From positions 1-37,652 of IMG/VR virus record IMGVR_UViG_3300009481_000002: a DNA stretch of 37,652 nt. One strand, given 5' to 3'. Below the pieces are notes generated by a model. It worked only from the letters and a program-made list of their open reading frames with translations. It had not been told where the DNA came from and did no database searches. Of this stretch, positions 1-37,652 are shown piece after piece; the first letter of the stretch is position 1; each line of letters starts with the position of its first letter. The translations under genes and the position numbers were made by a program. Source of the DNA: a virus.

Positions 1-123
1 ACACCTTTATAAACAAACGCAGGATTTTCTATAGCTAGCCCAGCCCACCTGCCAATAACTTCTTGCCACGCATTAAAGAACGGCGACATAAAACCAACCA
101 TTTCAGCAAATTCGCTGTGTTCA
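1..123. repeat. Terminal duplication copy 1. It is identical to 37530-37652 and marks a circular assembly overlap.
   Basis: Base-by-base comparison: acacctttataaacaaacgc...ttcgctgtgttca occurs at both window ends (123 nt). The repeat lies inside an open reading frame. Confidence 0.95.
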
Positions 124-3100
124 GCTAGCTCATACATAACTTCTCTAGTGTCTTTAAAAGCTGCTTTACGTGCTTCGTCTTCCATACGCACAATATCAGC
201 AGGTGTTAAATCATACGTGCCGTCAGCTTTAGCGTAAGGCGCTGCGCTATCTATTAAATGCGTCCTATACCTAGATTCAAAAAATGGTCCTCTTGAAATA
301 TCATCTGCTGCGCCTGTGCCAAGATTTTGAAATGTTTTATCAATCAAATCACGTGTCCATTTTATAAAACCTTCTTGTTTTGCTGATGGTTGACTAATAG
401 AATCTCTAGCTTTACCAAACCCTCCACGTGAAGAGTTATCTTTTACACGAATTTGAGCAATAATTTCGTTAGCTTTACTACCATCAAATCCATGTCTAGC
501 TATAAACTCTGGATCAGTTAATGTCGATTTAACATCATCCCAACTAATTTCCTCACCTGCACGCACCTTGGCACGCAAATCAGGGAAATATTCAGGAGGA
601 AGAAAATCATTAACTTCATCAATAGCGTCTTCAGCTATTTCTTTAAATATTTTTCTATCAGCGCCTTTTCCTTCATAACCTTTTATTTGATACTTACGTT
701 GCAAACGAGGCGTGTTCTCAATTAAAGTAGCAATAGCTTCAACTTTTTGCACGTGAGACAAACTGTCATTATACATAATGTTATAAAATTGTATTTCTTT
801 AGTACCTGTACGTGACATCTGCATATAAGTACGTGTCCACGCTGTTCTCATTTGAGATGCAGTAACACCTTCTTTAAGAACATCAACAATTTCCCATCCT
901 TCACCTATGTTTTCATTTATTTGACGTTTAGCAGCAGCAACAGGTCCACGCATAGATGTGTCAAGACTATTAGCGCTAGATAACTGCCTTTGAGACATGC
1001 GTTGGAACCTTAAATCAGAACCCCACGCATTACCAAAAGTTGCGTTACCAATAGTTTGTCTAGGGTAACCAGCTTTTTCCCACCACATATCAGCTTGGTC
1101 AAATAAACTAACAACCTTATCTTTATCAGCCCAAGACAAACCAAAATTATATTCATCTTCAAGCCACGCTAAATCTTTTAACAACTGATCGCCACTAGAA
1201 CTTAAACGTTCAGCAAGTTCTATAACAGTTATATCATCTGCTGCTTCTCCTATTATACGTGCAGCGTCAATTTGAAACGCATTCGCTAATTGCGCTGCTG
1301 AACTTTTAACAGCATACTTTTGTAAATTCTTAGTACGGTTTTTCCAATATCTAAAACCCCAACCAGCCCCAAGCAAAGGATTAACCATACCCCCTACAAG
1401 CGCACGTGCAGTTATGCCAAGACCTTTTCTACGTGAAGGGCTTATTTTAGTAGCTTTTTCTTTAGCTTTTAAAGCGTCTTCTATATAACGAGCAGAAGCA
1501 CTATCCATAACAGCTTCTAAATTTAAACCTCGTTCTTCAACAAATTTAACTATATCTATTAGCGTCGCATCATTAGAAACTTTTGGCACGTCTTTACTTT
1601 TTGCAAAATTTTTATTTAATTCATTTCGCAACGCAACAGAAAAACCTTCATCAGTCAAATTCAAACCACGTGCCTGCATATTTTGAACCCAACGATTAAA
1701 CCCCTTGTTAAGCGTACCTAACATAGGTAGTACTCCCATGACAGCAGCAGCACGCAACTTTTCATCAGTTAACACACGCACAGTCCAACGAGGCGTTAAC
1801 AATTTACCAGCAGTCCAAACTTCCTGTAAACCTTTAGCAGCCACAGGAACTGCTTTAGCGTATTTGCTTCGTTTAAGATTTACTAACTTTCCTTCTTTTT
1901 GCGTCCCACGTTTACCGCCACCAAAATAATCAGTTCTATTCATTGATCTATTAATTTCACGTTGCAACAAATCAAATCTAGGAATAATAGAACATTCAGC
2001 TAACTGAGCTAAACTTAAATTATACGTATACGTATGTATACCTTCATTAACAGGAACGTTAGTATACGTATGCTCCTCAGTATACGCTTTACGTTCTGTT
2101 ACAAGTTGACCATCTTCATCGTATATACGTTTGCCACGCATCCCAGTTTCATCAACAGTGTACTTAGTTTCACTCATATCAATAGGTTTAAATTCTTTAT
2201 TATCTAACCTATTAAGAAAATCTTTTTGAGCGCCATTTAATTGCTTAACAAGATAGTCTTTAGGTATATCAACTAATGCGCCTGTATCGTCATAAATTTT
2301 AATATCTTGTTTACGCATCATGCCTTCAGCCCTGTAAACCAATTTGCTCATTGTTGCTGTGTAAAATTCAACAAACGTTGAGTAATCTTCACCTTTAAAA
2401 ACATATTCATTCCATTTGCCTAAAATTTCTACAGCTTCTTTTTCAGAAAGCAATCTTTTGCCACCAATAACAAATTCTGAAGCGTCTTCAATAACACGCT
2501 CAAACATAACCGTAGATTGCCCACCTAAATCAGTAAAATGGATTAAGCCTTGAGGCACACGGCTAGTAAATATTTTTAAAGCCTTTATTCCCAAAGGCAA
2601 AAACACAGACGGATTTGAATACGCCTTATCAAAAGTAGTAACAACAGTGTCATGATTAGACGTAAATTTATTGCCAGTAGTTTCTTTTACTTTATTTAAA
2701 TGATTCCTATGAACTACACCAATCGGTTGATAAATTTTTCTATTGCCAACAGATTTAACAATATTGTCAGCCAACAAAGCATCTTCAACAATTTTATCTA
2801 CAACAATTTGAGCAGTAATTCTATCTAAATTATCCCATTCATCAACTTGCGATTTAGGAAGCGACACATCGCCGTTAGCATCTAAAGTAACTTTCTTTTG
2901 TTGCGATACTTTAATCTGATTATAAAAATCAAAATGGTATTCCCAATGAACATCATTAAAAACTTGACCTTCAATTTTTAATTCCGCTTCTAACGCATCG
3001 TTTCTAACAGATTCTTCTCGAACAAAATTTTCATCTTTAACTCGTTCAACTTTTAAATCTTCTATTTCTTGTTTTAAAGCATTTATTTCTCTGGTATTAG

Positions 3101-4835
3101 CAGCACGCCTAGTTTTAAGAATACGCCGACGAGTATCATCTACAGATTCAATACCACCTTCAAACGAATCAGAAATTCTACGTGCTTGTTGTATTTCAAC
3201 AGGCAAAACTTCTGTAGAAATTAATTCACGTTTTTCTTGTAACTTTTCAATCCTATTTCTTAACGTAGATATTTTACCGTTAGTACCGTCAATACGTTTT
3301 CTTGCCCTAGTTATATCACGATCAACGTCATCTAATAATTTAATTCTTTTACCATAATCACTATCTATTAAAACAGCGCCAGCTTGCCTAATAACTTCTG
3401 CTATTTCACCCTTAACAGTTGTATCGCCTAAATACTCACGCAAAATTCTTTGAGCAGCAAGTTTACTAGGAGCAGTAGCTAACGCTGTCTGCACACGCTC
3501 AGGTAATTTAGTATTATTTTTCCTACCAGCAGCTTGTCTCCAACGAACACCACGTTCATTAATTAATGTTTGGTCAGCGTCAGTAGAAACAATTTTACTA
3601 GACTTATACTGTGCAGAAAATTTATTATCAGGAACAGCGTCCATAACCGTATTCCACGTGTCATTAAACCATTTGCTTTCAGCCATACCTTTAGCTTGTT
3701 CAGTTGTAACAGTTTTACGCAACGCTAAATCTTGTTCAGTTAAATTATTAGGCTTATTAAACCGATCTTTGACTTTAGAAACCATCCCTTGAGGAGGCGT
3801 TAAACTATCTGGTTTTTGAATCGCTGACGTTGTTATATCTTTATCGTAAACAATTTTACGAACATTGCCAGTTCCTTCAACAACCCATATTTTATTAGGC
3901 ATAGCTTGACGAACTGGTATAAACGGAACACCATAATCATATATTCTTACAAGATCTCCAGCGTCGTTTAACTTAACTATTGCCGTTTCACCACGTGATA
4001 TGTTTTTAGTTCCTCTAATAGCTCTTTCTAAAGGATCTTTCCATTCTTTAATTAAATCTGCTGTACCTGAAATAACAGTAAATAAATCGTTTGTTTTAAT
4101 AGCGTTATAAGCTTCTTCATCAAATGGATCTATTGCATATAAACCAGTAGCTAACGCTTGACCTGCTGAACGTTCTTGAACCCATGCAACATCGTATGCT
4201 TGTTTCCATTCGTTAGCGTCAAATAAAACACTGTACGTATTGTAATCAAGCAAATTTAAAGGGTTATTTCCTGCTGCGTCTTGCACTCTATTTATCATCG
4301 TAAATGTCATTGACAATGGATTATCTACTAAATTATTAAAAGCCCAATGCAAACCTTCTACGCCTTCTTGAACAGCAGGTCTTGTAACATCACGTATTTC
4401 TTCTGGAACTAAACCAAAAGTACCGCCACCTAAACCTTTAGAGGCAAACAATCCATAGCCAGATCCCATGCCTTCATTCTCAGGGTCAAGAGGTAAACCT
4501 AAGATATCACGTGCTATGTCTTCTCTACCGTATTGAATTATTGCAGCCAACGGATCTTCCCAAAGAGCTACCCTGTCGCCATTACCAAAAATTTGTCTTC
4601 CACTATCAAATAAAAGGTTTTTACCTATTACAACAACTGTGCCTCCAGCGCCACGAAAAAGATTAGTAGTGGCTACAAAAGGTCTAAGCGTTTGAGTAAC
4701 AGCACGTTCAGGTTGAAACAATGCCCCATAAATAGGAACACTTTTTGCTGCTTCTTGTATCGGATCAGGAATAATCTTGTCAACAAGATCTTGTGCGTCG
4801 CCTGCTTTGTCTTTAAGATAATCGTACAAGCCCAC
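1..4835 (-). CDS. Giant virion-associated protein, N-terminal ~1,611 codons. It is one 2,129-aa ORF that continues at 37529 down to 35975. Function is unknown; it is a putative internal or ejection protein.
   Basis: Manual reverse-complement translation from GTG 4835-4833 (first start after in-frame TAG at 4845-4847) reaches base 1 with no stop. The frame matches the ATG at 99-101 (= 37628-37630), since 4835-101 = 3x1578. The track lists no minus ORF here because the frame never closes inside the window. A long coiled-coil-like K/E/R-rich segment is encoded around 2990-3320. Confidence 0.8.
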   Translation of the reverse strand, partial: MGLYDYLKDKAGDAQDLVDKIIPDPIQEAAKSVPIYGALFQPERAVTQTLRPFVATTNLFRGAGGTVVVIGKNLLFDSGRQIFGNGDRVALWEDPLAAIIQYGREDIARDILGLPLDPENEGMGSGYGLFASKGLGGGTFGLVPEEIRDVTRPAVQEGVEGLHWAFNNLVDNPLSMTFTMINRVQDAAGNNPLNLLDYNTYSVLFDANEWKQAYDVAWVQERSAGQALATGLYAIDPFDEEAYNAIKTNDLFTVISGTADLIKEWKDPLERAIRGTKNISRGETAIVKLNDAGDLVRIYDYGVPFIPVRQAMPNKIWVVEGTGNVRKIVYDKDITTSAIQKPDSLTPPQGMVSKVKDRFNKPNNLTEQDLALRKTVTTEQAKGMAESKWFNDTWNTVMDAVPDNKFSAQYKSSKIVSTDADQTLINERGVRWRQAAGRKNNTKLPERVQTALATAPSKLAAQRILREYLGDTTVKGEIAEVIRQAGAVLIDSDYGKRIKLLDDVDRDITRARKRIDGTNGKISTLRNRIEKLQEKRELISTEVLPVEIQQARRISDSFEGGIESVDDTRRRILKTRRAANTREINALKQEIEDLKVERVKDENFVREESVRNDALEAELKIEGQVFNDVHWEYHFDFYNQIKVSQQKKVTLDANGDVSLPKSQVDEWDNLDRITAQIVVDKIVEDALLADNIVKSVGNRKIYQPIGVVHRNHLNKVKETTGNKFTSNHDTVVTTFDKAYSNPSVFLPLGIKALKIFTSRVPQGLIHFTDLGGQSTVMFERVIEDASEFVIGGKRLLSEKEAVEILGKWNEYVFKGEDYSTFVEFYTATMSKLVYRAEGMMRKQDIKIYDDTGALVDIPKDYLVKQLNGAQKDFLNRLDNKEFKPIDMSETKYTVDETGMRGKRIYDEDGQLVTERKAYTEEHTYTNVPVNEGIHTYTYNLSLAQLAECSIIPRFDLLQREINRSMNRTDYFGGGKRGTQKEGKLVNLKRSKYAKAVPVAAKGLQEVWTAGKLLTPRWTVRVLTDEKLRAAAVMGVLPMLGTLNKGFNRWVQNMQARGLNLTDEGFSVALRNELNKNFAKSKDVPKVSNDATLIDIVKFVEERGLNLEAVMDSASARYIEDALKAKEKATKISPSRRKGLGITARALVGGMVNPLLGAGWGFRYWKNRTKNLQKYAVKSSAAQLANAFQIDAARIIGEAADDITVIELAERLSSSGDQLLKDLAWLEDEYNFGLSWADKDKVVSLFDQADMWWEKAGYPRQTIGNATFGNAWGSDLRFQRMSQRQLSSANSLDTSMRGPVAAAKRQINENIGEGWEIVDVLKEGVTASQMRTAWTRTYMQMSRTGTKEIQFYNIMYNDSLSHVQKVEAIATLIENTPRLQRKYQIKGYEGKGADRKIFKEIAEDAIDEVNDFLPPEYFPDLRAKVRAGEEISWDDVKSTLTDPEFIARHGFDGSKANEIIAQIRVKDNSSRGGFGKARDSISQPSAKQEGFIKWTRDLIDKTFQNLGTGAADDISRGPFFESRYRTHLIDSAAPYAKADGTYDLTPADIVRMEDEARKAAFKDTREVMYELAEHSEFAEMVGFMSPFFNAWQEVIGRWAGLAIENPAFVYKG

Positions 4836-6978: not shown

Positions 6979-8892
6979 TTAGCTTTCTGCTGTTACCCAC
7001 GTAGGTCGCCATTGTTTAAATGGCTTAGTTGCAGGTACGTATAGTTTCTCCAGATTATGTTCTACAAACCATTGTGCCATTACACAGTCATCAGTTCTAG
7101 ACCCTGTGCCTTCTGGATTCCATTTTGTTACTTCATTAACTAAACTTAACGAATTAGGTCTAGCATTAGTTCCTTGTTTCCCTGCAAGCCGAATACGACC
7201 CAAACGATACAACGGAGCCAACATTTGCACACCATACTTAGGGTCACCCTTATTACGAGAATGCGTGTAATGAGGTATAAGCTCTACACCACGCAACGCA
7301 GACCACCGCCGAAAATGATCGTACTGCAAAATAAATTTCTGAGCAGCGTTCGCTTCAACTATCCAATGCGTAATCGGATAACCTATCTCGTTACTTATCT
7401 GCCACCACTCTTCAGCTATACCAGTAAATTTTTGCGTATCATGGTTCCAATCTAAAAAAGAAGGAGCGTCCATTTTTTTTCTATGCGATTCTAACAAATA
7501 TCTATACTCAGATTCAGGACAATACGCCCAACATTGCAACGCCCAAAAATTAGACGGAGAAGGGTCAGCCGAAGCTACAACCATTACCTCACCAGCTAAA
7601 TACTTTGGCACTTCCCATAAATCACGGTCATTATCCCAACACCCAATATACTCAACTCCGTTATTGCCAGTACCGCCAGAAATCCAAAGAGGATCAACTA
7701 ACACCGATGCTGGGTCAGTGTCTTCCTGTTGATACAAAATTTCGTAACGGTCAGGCGTTTGCGCTTTAACATGTCGTATACGTCGCCAAGGCAACCGTCG
7801 AGGATACAACAAACAACCCTCAGGGTAAGCAACGTCACTAGGCTTATGTAACTGCTCGCACCTTTCATCATAATGAGCTTTAAATTTAAGATGAGTGTAT
7901 TTACGTTCGCCTTCAAGATCTACTTTACCGTCATTAACATCTTCAATTTCTACATCGTCATCGACAGGCGCAACTTTATCCAACGCATAACGGTAAATAT
8001 CGTCAGAAGCCATACGCTGCCCCTGCAAAATAAGCAACCCAGCAGGCTCCAAACGAGTTTCAGCTACCTCATCCCACCACCGATACATGTCAGCACGTGA
8101 CTCGCTATTACGCATCTTGCGAGGATCCCATACGTCATCCCAAATAATAAGATCAAAACGGCCACCAAGAAAACCAGAGTCCATACCAAACGCAGACCAC
8201 GACGGCTCCTTTTGAGACAACGGCACGTCGCCCTGCTGCACAACAGTAAACGCCTCCGCACGCCATATCTCTTTAGCGTCAGGTTTAAACTGGCCAAAAT
8301 CCTGCTGCATAGTGCATTCAGCATCAACAGCCAAACCCAATTTTAAATCGTTCAACTCAGCACGGGCAACATGCTCACGTTCAAACTCCGCCCTCAAACG
8401 CCGTGTATACCATTCAGCGAGACGTTGAGTCGAGGAACCGAGCATCCCTCTAATCGCCCTGTTACGGACTGTTGCCCATGCTGGAAGCACTTTCGCAAAA
8501 AACGTTGACTTACCACTGCCCGGCGGTGCATTGATAACACAATACTCCTCCAAAGGCGTTTCAAAAAGTTCAAATATTTTTTCAGTAGCTTCTATCTGCC
8601 AAGGCTGCAACACAATACCAAAATAACGCAAAGCAAATTTTTCAATATTGTCCCAACATTCCTGCACTTCCTCAGGTAACTCCGCATACGTAGGAATAGT
8701 CGAAACACCCACATGCTCTGTTTGTTCCTTAGCGATAACATAATTGCGTGTAGATATACGCCCAGATTCATTATCTCTAGCTGAATGGTAATTAACGCCA
8801 GCTTGTTTCGCTGCTTGATATATACTCATGCTACGACGTAGCAACAAGTACTCAGCCCATTTTTCTACTGGGGTAGCTTTACCAGAACCCAT
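6979..8892 (-). CDS. terL: Terminase large subunit with an N-terminal HTH-like extension (637 aa)
   Basis: Walker A is VINAPPGSGKST and Walker B is FDLIIWDD. The C-terminal RNase-H-like nuclease region contains VVASADPS, IVEANAAQKF and DDCVMAQW. The N-terminal ~60 aa (EKWAEYLLLRRSMSIYQAAKQAGVNYHSARDN) looks like a helix-turn-helix. Confidence 0.85.
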   Translation of the reverse strand: MGSGKATPVEKWAEYLLLRRSMSIYQAAKQAGVNYHSARDNESGRISTRNYVIAKEQTEHVGVSTIPTYAELPEEVQECWDNIEKFALRYFGIVLQPWQIEATEKIFELFETPLEEYCVINAPPGSGKSTFFAKVLPAWATVRNRAIRGMLGSSTQRLAEWYTRRLRAEFEREHVARAELNDLKLGLAVDAECTMQQDFGQFKPDAKEIWRAEAFTVVQQGDVPLSQKEPSWSAFGMDSGFLGGRFDLIIWDDVWDPRKMRNSESRADMYRWWDEVAETRLEPAGLLILQGQRMASDDIYRYALDKVAPVDDDVEIEDVNDGKVDLEGERKYTHLKFKAHYDERCEQLHKPSDVAYPEGCLLYPRRLPWRRIRHVKAQTPDRYEILYQQEDTDPASVLVDPLWISGGTGNNGVEYIGCWDNDRDLWEVPKYLAGEVMVVASADPSPSNFWALQCWAYCPESEYRYLLESHRKKMDAPSFLDWNHDTQKFTGIAEEWWQISNEIGYPITHWIVEANAAQKFILQYDHFRRWSALRGVELIPHYTHSRNKGDPKYGVQMLAPLYRLGRIRLAGKQGTNARPNSLSLVNEVTKWNPEGTGSRTDDCVMAQWFVEHNLEKLYVPATKPFKQWRPTWVTAES

Positions 8893-9227: not shown

Positions 9228-9418
9228 TAAAACCGTCCCCGTGCTTTCTTCATACGGCGATGGTTAGCTCTTCGCCTAGCACGACCATAACTAGCTTCTT
9301 GCGCTTTAATAGTATTACGGTACGCAGCGTCAACCGACCCAGCGCCTAAAGTAACTTTACGCTTTTTCTTATTTATATTTCTTTTAATTTTATTTATACC
9401 AATTTCATTTATACCCAT
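9227..9418 (-). CDS. Ultrabasic small protein (63 aa from ATG 9418; the track gives a TTG start at 9436)
   Basis: Track ORF. ATG 9418 is preceded by GAGGG. Hand count gives 20 K/R against 3 D/E. Confidence 0.55.
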   Translation of the reverse strand: MGINEIGINKIKRNINKKKRKVTLGAGSVDAAYRNTIKAQEASYGRARRRANHRRMKKARGRF

Positions 9419-9426
9419 AACGCCCT

Positions 9427-9525
9427 CTACTGACAACTCTCACAATACTCAGGATTCTCTAACCCACACTCTAGCACCTCATCGTCCTCCACGTCCCACA
9501 CCTCATCAAAATCTTCAAAAAACAC
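9427..9525 (-). CDS. Acidic mini-ORF (32 aa, M-FFEDFDEVWDVEDDEVLECGLENPEYCESCQ), first ORF of the leftward arm
   Basis: Found by hand. A GTG start at 9525 lies 5 nt after AAGGAG. 13 of 32 residues are D/E, there is no K/R, and it carries a C-x7-C-x2-C pattern. Confidence 0.35.
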   Translation of the reverse strand: MFFEDFDEVWDVEDDEVLECGLENPEYCESCQ

Positions 9526-9683
9526 AAAAACTCCTTGTCATACTGTTGCAAAAAAGAAACAACCGAGATACCCTACAACATAACTTAATCCCAAACGGGT
9601 ACTGTGGACCCTTGACCCACCACAGCAACGCTTGTAAGAAGCGCCCGACTAACCCTCGGTGCGTCACCCGTCAGAAGGGTAAC

Positions 9684-9725
9684 CGCCCCCTATGACAACG
9701 CAACAGGAATGAGCGCATAGGGGCG
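9684..9725. promoter_or_regulatory. Strong hairpin in the GC-rich part of the control region
   Basis: CCCCTATG (9687-9694) pairs with CATAGGGG (9716-9723). Outer CG/CG pairs lie across a 1-nt bulge. The loop is 21 nt. Confidence 0.4.
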
Positions 9726-9770
9726 TAGCGCACAGGACAAAGCGACTACAAGGCCAAAGCAGCCCTAATG

Positions 9771-9787
9771 CTTGGGAGGTTCCCAAG
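9771..9787. promoter_or_regulatory. Perfect 7-bp stem with a 3-nt loop, immediately before the C/A tract
   Basis: The sequence is CTTGGGA-GGT-TCCCAAG. Confidence 0.4.
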
Positions 9788-9791
9788 GGAT

Positions 9792-9899
9792 CCCACGCCC
9801 AAAACACAACAACCCAACACCAAAAAACAAACACCCCAAACACACAACAAAAAAACCCCCACAACACACAAACAACTGAACCAAAACAACCAACAAACC
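9792..9899 (+). repeat. C/A-only low-complexity tract (G/T-only on the other strand)
   Basis: Of 108 nt, only three are not C or A (g9797, t9877, g9878). 9798-9876 is 79 nt of pure C/A. Confidence 0.95.
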
Positions 9900-9939
9900 G
9901 CTAATAACTCAAGGATATGGGGGGTACCAAGGCAATCTG

Positions 9940-9953
9940 TTAGGTATGCCTAA
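9940..9953. promoter_or_regulatory. Palindromic 14-mer TTAGGTATGCCTAA, copy 1
   Basis: TTAGG/CCTAA arms with a TATG centre. It recurs 69 bp downstream. Confidence 0.4.
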
Positions 9954-10008
9954 CACTTATTGTAAGGCCAGGCTGATAGGGGGTGTCAATCAAACAGAAC
10001 ACCCAGTA

Positions 10009-10022
10009 TTAGGTATGCTTAA
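10009..10022. promoter_or_regulatory. Palindromic 14-mer TTAGGTATGCTTAA, copy 2
   Basis: 13 of 14 bases match copy 1. Each copy lies 14-15 nt (copy 1) or 26 nt (copy 2) downstream of a GGGGGT run (9919-9925 and 9978-9983). Confidence 0.4.
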
Positions 10023-10170
10023 TGTGTGGTTTGAAAGCGAACGTTTGTTCGATGTTGCCCTGTAGTGGCCCTAGGATGCGTCCTAAGGACTGTTATACGT
10101 TCGCCGGTACTGTTACCCATGTTGGAGCTATAAACGCCTTAGCTGTATAACGTTCGTTATGTTACAGAAA

Positions 10171-10179
10171 TGTTACAAT
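10171..10179 (+). promoter_or_regulatory. Candidate extended -10 promoter (TGT-TACAAT) for the rightward early arm
   Basis: TGnTACAAT matches TGnTAnnnT. It sits in an AT-rich patch with TGTTAY repeats. No convincing -35 element is present. Confidence 0.3.
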
Positions 10180-10495
10180 GTTGTTGGGTGACTGGCATTG
10201 ATCTTCAATCTGTGTATGTAATTGAAGTAGCTTCTCAGTTTAGAAACCGACTCTGAGATAAGCCCTGAGGAAGGGGGAGCGAATAGGAAGGACAGGGCGA
10301 CCATAGACCCCGACACAAGAGTTCTTCCAAAAGGTTGAAAGTCCCCAAATTGGTCACACCTTTTAAACCGGTATTGAACGGGAATTAGCGGAAAGACCCT
10401 AGGCTACTAGGACAACTACCGAGGCGAGATGACTTAACCGACACCTATCGGGATACTACTGATGGAGGCCGTATGGCCCTAAGGGTAAATTAGAA

Positions 10496-10565
10496 TCTTT
10501 CTTTCCTTCTCTACGGATACCGTACTGACGAGGCTCCCAGACTGGAGCTAGAAAGAAAGGAAAGA
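10496..10565 (+). promoter_or_regulatory. Leader structure that sequesters the SD of the first early gene
   Basis: Pyrimidine arm TCTTTCTTTCCTT (10496-10508) pairs with purine arm AAGGAAAGAAAGA read 3'-5' (10553-10565): 11 Watson-Crick pairs, 1 G-U, 1 mismatch. It encloses the hairpins TACGG-ATA-CCGTA (10512-10524) and GCTCC-CAGACT-GGAGC (10533-10548). Confidence 0.4.
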
Positions 10566-10566
10566 C

Positions 10567-10773
10567 ATGGAAGAACTAGAGCGCAAAGCCAGAGCAAGAG
10601 CAAAGGCAAGAGCTAAGAATCAAAGGGCGTTAGCTATCCGATATAGCCAGATAACGCACCGTTCAACGGTTGCACCGGCTCCCAGAGTTCACAACCGGCA
10701 TACCGTGTGGACACTTCAGACAGTCGGCAAGACTGACACGATTCCAAACTGGGCCGGAAAAATCCGGTGGTAG
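10567..10773 (+). CDS. Hypothetical early protein (68 aa, basic, RAKA repeats)
   Basis: Track ORF. The ATG is preceded by AGAAAGAAAGGAAAGAC. Confidence 0.6.
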   Translation: MEELERKARARAKARAKNQRALAIRYSQITHRSTVAPAPRVHNRHTVWTLQTVGKTDTIPNWAGKIRW

Positions 10774-35974: not shown

Positions 35975-37652
35975 CTAGTCTGCCCAACTGTTCTTGGGAA
36001 TAAGATCATTCTCTAAAAACCTTGAATAGAACAAAGCAAAATCTGGCCTAGTAGCAAACTCAGATCTAACTTGATCCCACTCATACATTAATAATCTATT
36101 GTTATCAGCTTCCAAAGAACTACTAGGCAACCTTCTCAAATCATTTTCAAAATCGTTCCGAATATCTAAATACTCTACAAGGCTACCAATCCAAGGCTTA
36201 TACGCTAACGACGGTTCTTCAACCAAAGCCCTAGCGCCTTCCATTACCTCAGCAATATAATTAGAAGAACTAAATTCTTCAATCGCTTCACCAAACAACG
36301 GATATTTTTCACTAAGTTCTGCTTTTTTGAGATCATAATATAGCTTTAAACCAGAATGAACAGCAGCAGAAGGCGAATTACTTAACCCATCATTAGCATA
36401 CAACAACTGATTATAAGACGGGCTTCCTTCTACACCATCTATTGGGCTATCTTTCCAAGCGTTTAATTCAGTATATCCACGTGACACTTCTGTCTGTTTA
36501 ATAAATTCTTCAGGCGTATAAATTTCACGCCATCCTTCATTCATAAAAATTTGTTGAACAGCCGGTGAAAACGCCCCATCTTCAATAGCGCTGACACGCA
36601 AAGAATTAGTTACAACAGAAGTCATTACAGGATATTTTTCTATAAAATCTTTATGTTTTTGAGATAATTTAAACGACTCTATTGTCGGAGCAACACCTTT
36701 AGCATTTCTAGTTGCGTTACCGCTTAGAAAGAAAAACTCTTCGCCGTAAAGATTAAGGAATTGGTTAACAGCCCATTCAGGTTCTAAACCTAAAGCTCTA
36801 CCATGTTCTTCTAATTGATTTAATTTTATAATATACGGTTCATACGGAGAACCTTCAGCAGAAGCTACAGGTATTACAGTAGTTGCAAGAAACTTTAAGA
36901 ACCCGACACTTTGTGTCATTTCTTCAGCTTTAGCTATAACGTTACTTTGTACTTCAGGGTCAGTGTAGTCGTAAGGAGTTCCTGCTTCTCTAGCTTTAAC
37001 GTCAAGGTAAGTCACCATATCAATCATGGTCAATCCGTAGTTTTGTTTATTGCCGTAACGGAAAGGGTTATCTGGATCTAACGCTGTGTAGTATAAATGA
37101 TCGGCCCATGACGGAGTAAATTCTTGAACAAAACGTTCAACAAAGTTTCCATCTGGGTGGCCGAATGGGAACATCCATCCAGCAACTTTTTCTATTTCAG
37201 GTTTTTTAAAATCAAACATAAACGTTCGTAAAGGCAACGTAATAAACGGGCCAGCACTAGGAGTTGTTTTAGTTAACATCGTAAACAACCCATCTTTATC
37301 TAACTTAATTCCAACCTCGTCAACAAGCTCACCGACACTACCAATAGGAGAACTAGGCAACACCTGATTAGCAGCGTCACTAATACTATTAGTAAATTTA
37401 GGATTAACTAACAACGATGCAAGAGCGCTATCTTTAGGTCTAAACACAACATTTAAATTTCCGTATTGATCTTCTTCTTGTGTTAACCCTAGGATCGGCA
37501 ATTCAACATCATCTTTAGTAAACAACCGAACACCTTTATAAACAAACGCAGGATTTTCTATAGCTAGCCCAGCCCACCTGCCAATAACTTCTTGCCACGC
37601 ATTAAAGAACGGCGACATAAAACCAACCATTTCAGCAAATTCGCTGTGTTCA
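35975..37652 (-). CDS. Giant virion-associated protein, C-terminal part. It is the same ORF as 1..4835, and 37530-37652 duplicates 1-123.
   Basis: The track ORF 35975..37630 stays open upstream to the window end (EHSEFAEMVGFMSPFF...). The full ORF is 6,390 nt, or 2,129 aa, in the circular genome. Confidence 0.8.
   Translation of the reverse strand, partial: EHSEFAEMVGFMSPFFNAWQEVIGRWAGLAIENPAFVYKGVRLFTKDDVELPILGLTQEEDQYGNLNVVFRPKDSALASLLVNPKFTNSISDAANQVLPSSPIGSVGELVDEVGIKLDKDGLFTMLTKTTPSAGPFITLPLRTFMFDFKKPEIEKVAGWMFPFGHPDGNFVERFVQEFTPSWADHLYYTALDPDNPFRYGNKQNYGLTMIDMVTYLDVKAREAGTPYDYTDPEVQSNVIAKAEEMTQSVGFLKFLATTVIPVASAEGSPYEPYIIKLNQLEEHGRALGLEPEWAVNQFLNLYGEEFFFLSGNATRNAKGVAPTIESFKLSQKHKDFIEKYPVMTSVVTNSLRVSAIEDGAFSPAVQQIFMNEGWREIYTPEEFIKQTEVSRGYTELNAWKDSPIDGVEGSPSYNQLLYANDGLSNSPSAAVHSGLKLYYDLKKAELSEKYPLFGEAIEEFSSSNYIAEVMEGARALVEEPSLAYKPWIGSLVEYLDIRNDFENDLRRLPSSSLEADNNRLLMYEWDQVRSEFATRPDFALFYSRFLENDLIPKNSWAD
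37530..37652. repeat. Terminal duplication copy 2. It is identical to 1-123.
   Basis: Same 123-nt string as the window start. This implies a unit genome of 37,529 bp. Confidence 0.95.

Follow-up and report, generated by a model that had tools for sequence, protein, structure and literature searches.

Why should a phage hold, between its two main groups of genes, a stretch of DNA in which each strand is spelled with only two letters that cannot pair with one another? We addressed this question for a window of 37,652 nt, the stretch of DNA analysed throughout (IMG/VR record IMGVR_UViG_3300009481_000002, positions 1 to 37,652), in which an earlier note, made from the sequence alone, had pointed to a tract composed almost exclusively of C and A on one strand.

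Genomic setting of the tract

The record carries an exact 123-bp overlap between its ends (1-123 = 37530-37652) that lies inside a coding region, and it is therefore read as a circular assembly of 37,529 bp rather than as a genome with a physical terminal repeat. The tract is located in an ORF-poor gap of ~1.1 kb between the diverging early and packaging/structural arms, and the GC skew switches sign at this gap. The minus-strand arm starts with small ORFs from position 9525 downward and includes the terminase large subunit (6979-8892) and portal, both identified by PHROG matches, a giant protein, the major head protein, tail fibres, an endolysin and a DNA polymerase exonuclease subunit. The plus-strand arm, which begins at ~10567, consists of small early-type genes, a PD-(D/E)XK/Cas4-like exonuclease, an annealing protein and SSB. 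The first gene of the leftward terminase operon encodes 32 amino acids and is preceded by a strong Shine-Dalgarno sequence (AAGGAG, 9532-9537) within a linker for which no significant fold was obtained (Table 1).

The giant protein is encoded by a continuous ORF of 2132 codons (17% of the genome) behind the portal gene that crosses the circular junction (1-4835 + 35975-37529, minus strand). Its sole match was PHROG 10618 (unknown function), a PDB sequence match or an obvious polymerase motif was not found, and the protein presumably serves inside the virion or in ejection. No tRNA or tmRNA was found. Among cultured phages no relative exceeded 24% terminase identity, and the major capsid protein is ~40% identical to that of Streptomyces podophages. 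With 859 terminase relatives at E<=1e-30 the group proved abundant in marine metagenomes, and a search for the host in genomes returned mis-binned MAG contigs only.

Table 1. Positions of the tract and of its neighbouring features in the window
Feature	Position	Strand	Description and basis
Small ORF, 32 aa	9427-9525	-	acidic, MFFEDFDEVWDVEDDEVLECGLENPEYCESCQ, C-x8-C-x2-C; third-position substitution pattern in alignment, ORF list
Variable linker between structure and first leftward ORF	9526-9594	-	indels and low conservation in alignment
Multi-helix structured element, ~200 nt	9595-9807	- (probable)	10 helices; RNAalifold, covariance model
Hairpin CTTGGGA-GGT-TCCCAAG	9770-9786	- (probable)	7-bp stem, 3-nt loop; conserved; helix 2 of the structured element
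Two-letter tract	9792-9899		plus strand A/C only, minus strand G/T only; aperiodic, essentially random order
Conserved early-side tract end	9876-9899		plus strand CTGAACCAAAACAACCAACAAACC, minus strand GGTTTGTTGGTTGTTTTGGTTCAG; anchored comparison and 40-sequence alignment, per-column information
Promoter/operator-like block	9900-9935	-	column profile, 40 distinct loci aligned in terminase sense
Single-copy palindromic site, -35-like	9924-9935		TTGCCTTGGTAC in the window, GTGCCGAGGCAC in most relatives
Variable control-region centre	9936-10240		repeated palindromic sites
Centre site TTAGGTATGCYTAA, two copies	9940-9953, 10009-10022
Centre site GCGAACGTTTGTTCG	10037-10051		further AACGTTCG copies

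Composition of the tract

The near-pure C/A composition proved to be real. With base counts of A60 C45 G2 T1 on the plus strand (and correspondingly 45 G and two C on the minus strand), 105 of the 108 positions are A or C, and the longest uninterrupted A/C run spans 79 nt (9798-9876). The runner-up among all runs in a non-self-complementary two-letter alphabet in the whole 37.6-kb window measures 21 nt (9879-9899) and is the tail of the same tract. At a probability of 0.534 for A or C, ~1e-17 runs of 79 nt would be expected by chance per window, and in 500 shuffled windows the longest run averaged 16.8 nt and never exceeded 25 nt.

The absence of a simple repeat unit was borne out as well. No tandem unit was found in the tract of the window, and in 43 distinct tracts pooled from this and related loci (3944 nt; A 50%, C 45%, G 2.6%, T 2.3%) the autocorrelation of A was ~0 at lags 1 to 25, run lengths were geometric and the order of A and C was statistically random. 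The plus-strand C runs of 3, 3, 3, 4 and 5 match the G-runs reported earlier for the complement (GGGGG, GGGG and GGG three times), and cytosines in the CA sense are spaced no more than 8 nt apart throughout the 108 nt. The suggestion that neither strand can self-pair stands within the nearest-neighbour model, which predicts minimum free energies of 0 kcal/mol in the CA and -1.15 kcal/mol in the GU sense; G-quadruplexes and the G-U wobbles of the G/T strand lie outside the coverage of this model, and the G/T strand could still form such wobbles and possibly quadruplexes.

Several familiar explanations for such a composition could be rejected. A simple repeat or microsatellite is ruled out by the lack of a tandem unit and of periodicity, and a low-complexity coding segment by a 1-nt indel between two 99% identical loci (L004 and L005), a lag-3 autocorrelation of -0.015 and the lack of 3-nt periodicity. 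Curved DNA or A-tract phasing of the UP-element kind would require a 10-11-nt periodicity, which is absent. Selection for a G-quadruplex is unsupported, G-runs being slightly fewer than expected of a random two-letter sequence, and a classical A+T-rich unwinding element is ruled out by an A+T content of 56% compared to 58% in the genome. The earlier note knew of no described phage element of this form, and our literature search likewise turned up no account of a phage tract that is strictly two-letter, aperiodic and conserved in composition.

Conservation across relatives

The search of related contigs that had been proposed as a check was carried out with the terminase against IMG/VR and yielded 79 loci, 48 of which contained enough upstream flank for scoring. 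A tract of the same composition was present at the same place in 42 of these 48 loci, which derive from many independent samples and span terminase identities of 62-100%, while three further loci carried a shorter, interrupted version and the three most distant ones (47% terminase identity) had none. Its presence in dozens of independent assemblies rules out an assembly artefact. Among the 42 loci the length of the tract ranged from 45 to 335 nt, with about half of the relatives having only 45-60 nt, and its distance upstream of the terminase gene from 0.5 to 2.6 kb (with the single exception of L023 at 4.8 kb). Polarity, on the other hand, was invariant, A and C always being on the strand opposite the terminase.

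The primary sequence of the tract was not conserved except for ~25 nt at the early-side end, for which the clade consensus on the minus strand reads GGTGT.TTGG-N4-TTTGGTT. Aligned differences inside tracts comprised 587 A<->C exchanges versus 114 of all other kinds, in addition to 469 indel positions, while in the flanking 380 nt transitions made up ~49% of substitutions; an excess of A<->C exchanges is expected by construction between tracts containing only A and C, and some of the alignments at 80% identity may be spurious. The informative signal is that the tracts diverge freely while G and T remain at 2-3%. By these comparisons the tract is real, fast-evolving and constrained in its alphabet only, and it represents a conserved hallmark of the control region in an abundant, uncultured group of marine phages.

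The two ends of contig IMGVR_UViG_3300020460_000027 (L080/L081) result from a break of a circular assembly inside the G/T tract, one copy having a single G more than the other. A direct terminal repeat was considered for this contig and rejected, as all that the ends share is an assembly overlap of ~80 nt that differs in a homopolymer. This G5/G6 difference suggests heterogeneity of tract length within a population, which likely explains why ~35 of the 79 related contigs end in this region.

A structured element on the terminase side

The ~360 nt adjoining the tract (9424-9815) are better conserved at the DNA level than the neighbouring genes. RNAalifold, run on both strands with 12 sequences, revealed 12 compensatory pairs and not a single broken one, and the covariance model matched at 44 distinct loci; wherever coordinates were compared, the match adjoined the tract. 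In the covariance-model alignment 44 of 53 pairs exhibited changes on both sides, and 93% of the cells were paired compared to 39-44% when the partners were slid, with none of 500 shuffles reaching the observed values. Rfam gave no match at gathering score in the window and two chance-level matches at E<=10 over 9400-10700. The ~200-nt element is accordingly best described as a predicted new structured RNA, previously undescribed and without a counterpart in Rfam.

The strand on which this RNA folds was assessed from mismatch types. In the minus-sense model mostly Watson-Crick pairs contained 80 G-U versus 18 A-C combinations, and five extra pairs were mostly G-U (102 cells), while a mirror model fitted to the plus sense contained 42 G-U and 37 A-C. 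These counts make the terminase-sense (minus) strand the probable one, a call that we make with fairly good confidence. The perfect hairpin that had been reported immediately before the tract is real and conserved but is not a separate entity, forming instead one helix of the larger covarying structure. Helix 1 joins the last Gs of the tract to the 3' end of the structured element, and the RNA would therefore span at least the end of the tract.

An N4-like hairpin promoter served by a virion RNA polymerase was considered for this hairpin and set aside. The hairpin belongs to the larger structure, and no polymerase motif or PDB sequence match was found in the 2132-aa virion-type protein.

A promoter/operator-like block on the early side

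On the minus strand the block at the opposite edge of the tract consists, in this order, of the palindromic site, a C/G run, an A/T-rich -10-like stretch, TA..C and the GG with which the tract starts; from this GG the consensus of the early-side end continues into the tract. The layout across the 40 aligned loci is a G-run followed by (A)TGTGCCGAG(GCAC), with T3, G4, C5, C6 and G9 as the most informative columns (1.8-2 bits). Thus the far edge of the tract carries a highly conserved -35-like (G/T)TGCC(G/T), an A/T-rich and weakly conserved hexamer region 17 nt downstream of it and, 7-9 nt past this hexamer, the first G of the tract, with the conserved TA..C in between. The palindrome, GTGCC-NN-GG(C/T)AC, occurs in one copy per locus; ~25 nt separate it from the tract, or 35 nt when counted from where the palindrome starts.

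Matches to the sigma-70 consensus were weak and inconsistent among relatives, and a sigma-70 scan of the window's own block gave no match. The block nevertheless fits a putative promoter of the sigma-70 type that would start at the first G of the tract, with an operator over the -35 site. Since a -10 element needs an A and the tract is G/T-only in this sense, a sigma-70-type start would have to be at the tract's far edge or past it, provided that the host polymerase makes the structured RNA. An early-sense sigma-70 promoter at the tract edge, (C/T)TGAAC-N18-GATAAT, was also considered and down-weighted, as the key T of its -10 and the TTG of its -35 are poorly conserved.

The control-region centre and the early strand

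Beyond the block, the centre varies between lineages and contains arrays of 3-10 palindromic sites that are lineage-specific in relatives. GCGAAC-N5-GTTCGC, which in the window occurs at 10037-10051 and beyond, is present in 3-5 copies in L004, L019 and L023, and GTGAC-N6-GTCAC in ten copies in L006. L035, as the only one among the relatives, has a cluster of DnaA boxes (1328-1500) with two exact copies of TTATCCACA and about seven near-matches in both orientations, located between its CA tract and a mirror GT tract. These features fit an operator region or a replication origin alike and may represent either.

Composition on the early side mirrors that of the tract. The G+T content of the terminase-sense strand 100-400 nt to the early side was 0.40-0.43, compared to 0.51 further out. 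This mirror bias, G/T on the early-sense strand, was seen in many relatives, with a clear second tract in L063, L056, L037, L035 and L059/L081. Polarity is set relative to the centre, the outward-reading strand being G/T on both sides. Chi-like end protection was dismissed by reasoning, since the orientation would be wrong for ends at the centre.

The early strand contains structures of its own. A three-way junction directly before the first early ORF (10496-10566, plus strand; ATG at 10567) shares its layout and core with a type III hammerhead, in the order UC, stem I hairpin, CUGA(C/U)GA, stem II hairpin, (A)GAAA and stem III. In stem III a 17-nt C/U run pairs with an A/G run that includes the ribosome-binding site. 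Covariation among six relatives is seen in stems I and II, and there is one extra A before GAAA. The match to Rfam RF00008 was 13.5 bits (E=2.1; threshold 48.5), and the junction may represent a variant ribozyme or, alternatively, a translational switch. Upstream of it, ~250 nt (~10240-10495, plus strand) are conserved among relatives and hairpin-rich with compensatory changes, e.g. CCGACACCTATCGG and GGCCGTATGGCC; this stretch had no Rfam match and probably represents another structured leader, or an ncRNA, of the early strand. One relative (L030:2543-2788) carries in its early region a purine-only repeat array of ~250 nt (GAGGAGGAGGAGTGA...) with many Shine-Dalgarno-like GGAGG units on the terminase-sense strand.

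A strand-polar leader as the preferred reading

Six facts constrain any explanation: the two-letter alphabet is strict, non-complementary and randomly ordered; length and sequence vary freely; the polarity is fixed to the centre; the tract is directly continuous with a structure in terminase sense; a promoter-like block occupies the far edge; and the location is between divergent arms beside repeated protein sites. Position, conservation, compositional constraint, the adjoining structure and its likely strand are established by the sequence.

We tentatively prefer, as a possible reading that falls well short of conviction, that the tract represents the strand-polar 5' leader of the leftward packaging/structural operon and is transcribed as a G/U-only RNA. 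The promoter/operator block at the early-side edge would initiate an RNA at the tract's first G, and transcription of the tract would give a G/U-only leader of 45-335 nt, followed by the ~200-nt structured RNA, the Shine-Dalgarno sequence, the small ORFs and the terminase. Selection would purge A and C from the terminase-sense strand, leaving a leader that, long and untranslated as it is, would be unable to fold and would offer Rho no cytosines. Read inward, the same DNA would give a C-rich, G-free, unfolded RNA, an ideal Rho substrate. The tract could thereby flank the divergent control region as a polar element that transcription leaves readily and enters poorly. A nascent RNA that is C-free, unfolded and untranslated, over a G/T non-template strand, would also be most favourable for R-loops, and an R-loop would expose the G/T strand beside the palindrome and the iteron sites. 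The start site, the role of Rho and the formation of R-loops are what we infer in this scheme. The relevant molecule is probably this structure-free, C-free G/U-only 5' leader together with the G/T non-template strand, and not a CA-rich RNA.

The conserved composition combined with turnover of sequence and length is counted in favour of such a leader, and the mirror G/T bias on the early side of relatives agrees with a polarity defined relative to the centre. The covarying structure with its probable strand, the pairing of helix 1 with the last Gs of the tract, the promoter-like block at the far edge and the unfolded state of both senses likewise count for it, as do the rut-like composition of the CA sense (C 45, G 2; PMC6407284) and the CA-rich motifs reported in E. 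coli elements that end antisense transcription through Rho (PMC6847712). Several points speak against it. Evasion of Rho would account for the loss of C but not for the equally strict loss of A, the 45-60-nt tracts of half of the relatives are shorter than the 70-80 nt quoted for Rho loading, and the promoter pattern is weak, partly degenerate and, in the window's copy, fails the sigma-70 scan. Some marine hosts, e.g. cyanobacteria, are not known to have Rho.

T4 gene 32 mRNA has an unstructured leader beside a pseudoknot and is similar in joining a structure-free stretch of RNA to a folded nucleation element. In T4 the unstructured stretch is A/U-rich and separates the fold from the start codon, whereas the predicted one would be G/U-only and 5' of the fold.

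Alternative explanations

For each of its nearest kinds (rut sites and iRAPs, R-loop or primed-origin zones, and T7-like left ends), one or more defining features are lacking in the tract or are putative there. An origin at the DNA level is rather unlikely, if conceivable; here the palindrome/iteron region would be the replication origin and the two-letter tract or tracts would be zones where DNA is opened by transcription and R-loops or by an initiator, passing one hairpin-free strand to SSB, helicase or primase, with the mirror tract serving the other fork. The placement between divergent arms at the change of sign in GC skew would suit such an element, but the skew tracks gene orientation and is not independent evidence. 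Both strands are structure-free, the phage encodes SSB, an annealing protein and an exonuclease, and a mirror polarity would be expected of bidirectional forks or divergent R-loops; the tract is coupled, however, to an RNA structure, for which origins have no need. The unique conserved palindrome close to the tract and the arrays in the centres of relatives agree with initiator sites, but repressor operators explain such arrays equally well, and the exact and near-match DnaA boxes between the two tracts of L035 are limited to that relative. ColE1 RNA II, the T7 primary origin and the mitochondrial CSB region are GC-skewed R-loop zones or transcription-primed origins. The tract resembles them in that the putative promoter is followed by a G-rich, C-free non-template strand and in adjoining initiator-like repeated sites between divergent candidate promoters. 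It differs from them by lacking an A+T-rich region and an enrichment of G-runs, which are no commoner than chance for a two-letter sequence, and from ColE1 also in that the structured RNA is upstream there and downstream of the tract here. The origin zone suggested in the earlier note agrees with the control features nearby (divergent arms, unique palindrome, palindromic arrays and the boxes of L035), but its classical unwinding form does not stand, given an A+T content no higher than that of the genome and hence no element of low stability.

Functional RNA in the CA sense is distinctly improbable. The tract would then act as a pure Rho-loading site or insulator, or as a CA-rich translation or RNA-polymerase-binding element, for rightward transcripts. 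Rho substrates are unstructured, C-rich and G-poor RNAs of 70-80 nt with C/G > 1 over a window of ~78 nt (PMC6407284), and CA-rich motifs occur in the E. coli RNA elements (iRAPs) that trigger Rho termination of antisense transcription (PMC6847712). A CA-sense transcript of the tract would be similar to both, being C-rich and nearly G-free (C 45, G 2), unfolded at 0 kcal/mol and presumably ribosome-free over ~80-100 nt with closely spaced cytosines; the length of 70-80 nt or more is reached by the 108 nt of the window but not by many relatives, whose tracts are below 60 nt. Natural rut sites use all four bases, whereas the tract bars U as strictly as G even though Rho tolerates U, and transcription in the G/U sense, as we propose, would make it the reverse of a rut site. 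There is no rightward gene or promoter upstream of the tract, everything there being on the other strand, and the adjoining structure and the promoter-like block point leftward. The CA-rich RNA spacer proposed earlier is for these reasons less likely than a transcribed form that is G/U-only.

A genome-end tract, with termini (direct repeats or cos) in or beside it and the C+A-rich, G-poor strand immediately ahead of the early promoters as part of the entering or packaging end, is improbable. T7-like podoviruses have at their left end a terminal repeat and a C+A-rich array of short repeats upstream of the early promoters, and the tract is similar to this end and to that of the cultured, distantly related Streptomyces phage Immanuel3 in being strand-biased, G-poor and C+A-rich, directly upstream of the early region and near the terminase-proximal end of the map. 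The physical left end of Immanuel3 precedes the terminase gene by 679 nt, and the ~230 nt that start at this end are poor in G and rich in C, A and T, but the polarity relative to the terminase gene is opposite. Those ends are built of repeated units with T and some G, whereas the tract is aperiodic, strictly two-letter, devoid of T7-like short repeat units and known here from circular assemblies. The contigs that end in this region do so within 2.5 kb upstream of the terminase gene, several of them inside or beside the tract, and the circular assembly with the G5/G6 length difference is broken within it; these ends, however, are spread over ~1 kb without a pile-up at a single base, as is expected of assembly breaks at a variable low-complexity region. 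The window itself is circular with its overlap in a far-away gene, and helix 1 ties tract and structure into one strand. That the tract is a mutational footprint is very improbable. According to this explanation it would be a functionless neutral spacer, in which a chronically single-stranded G/T strand (the non-template or lagging-template strand) is driven by C-to-T and A-to-G deamination. The bases missing from the G/T strand are exactly the deaminable ones, the polarity equals that of the non-template strand on both sides of the centre, and the sequence is otherwise random; against this stand a purity of 97-100% with sharp edges beside unskewed, poorly conserved stretches and the maintenance of the tract across 62-100% terminase identity despite fast indel turnover.

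Implications

If the strand-polar leader is correct, the locus may exemplify a new class of cis-element, an aperiodic tract restricted to two non-complementary bases per strand (A/C on one, G/U on the other) that acts by strand polarity, trapping Rho when read inward, and is coupled to a new ~200-nt class of RNA heading the packaging/structural operon, and that may double as a transcription-opened origin; as a whole this proposal is possible but doubtful. Should the alphabet alone suffice, it would amount to a simple natural design rule for a nucleic acid that is unfolded on both strands and direction-dependent in transcription, which would be useful for understanding the control of Rho and R-loops as well as for engineering. 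The tract, the covarying RNA and the unique palindrome together mark the control region in a lineage of phages without a cultured member that is common in ocean metagenomes, and the putative start site, operator and leader RNA would provide handles on the timing of late expression and the start of replication in these phages.
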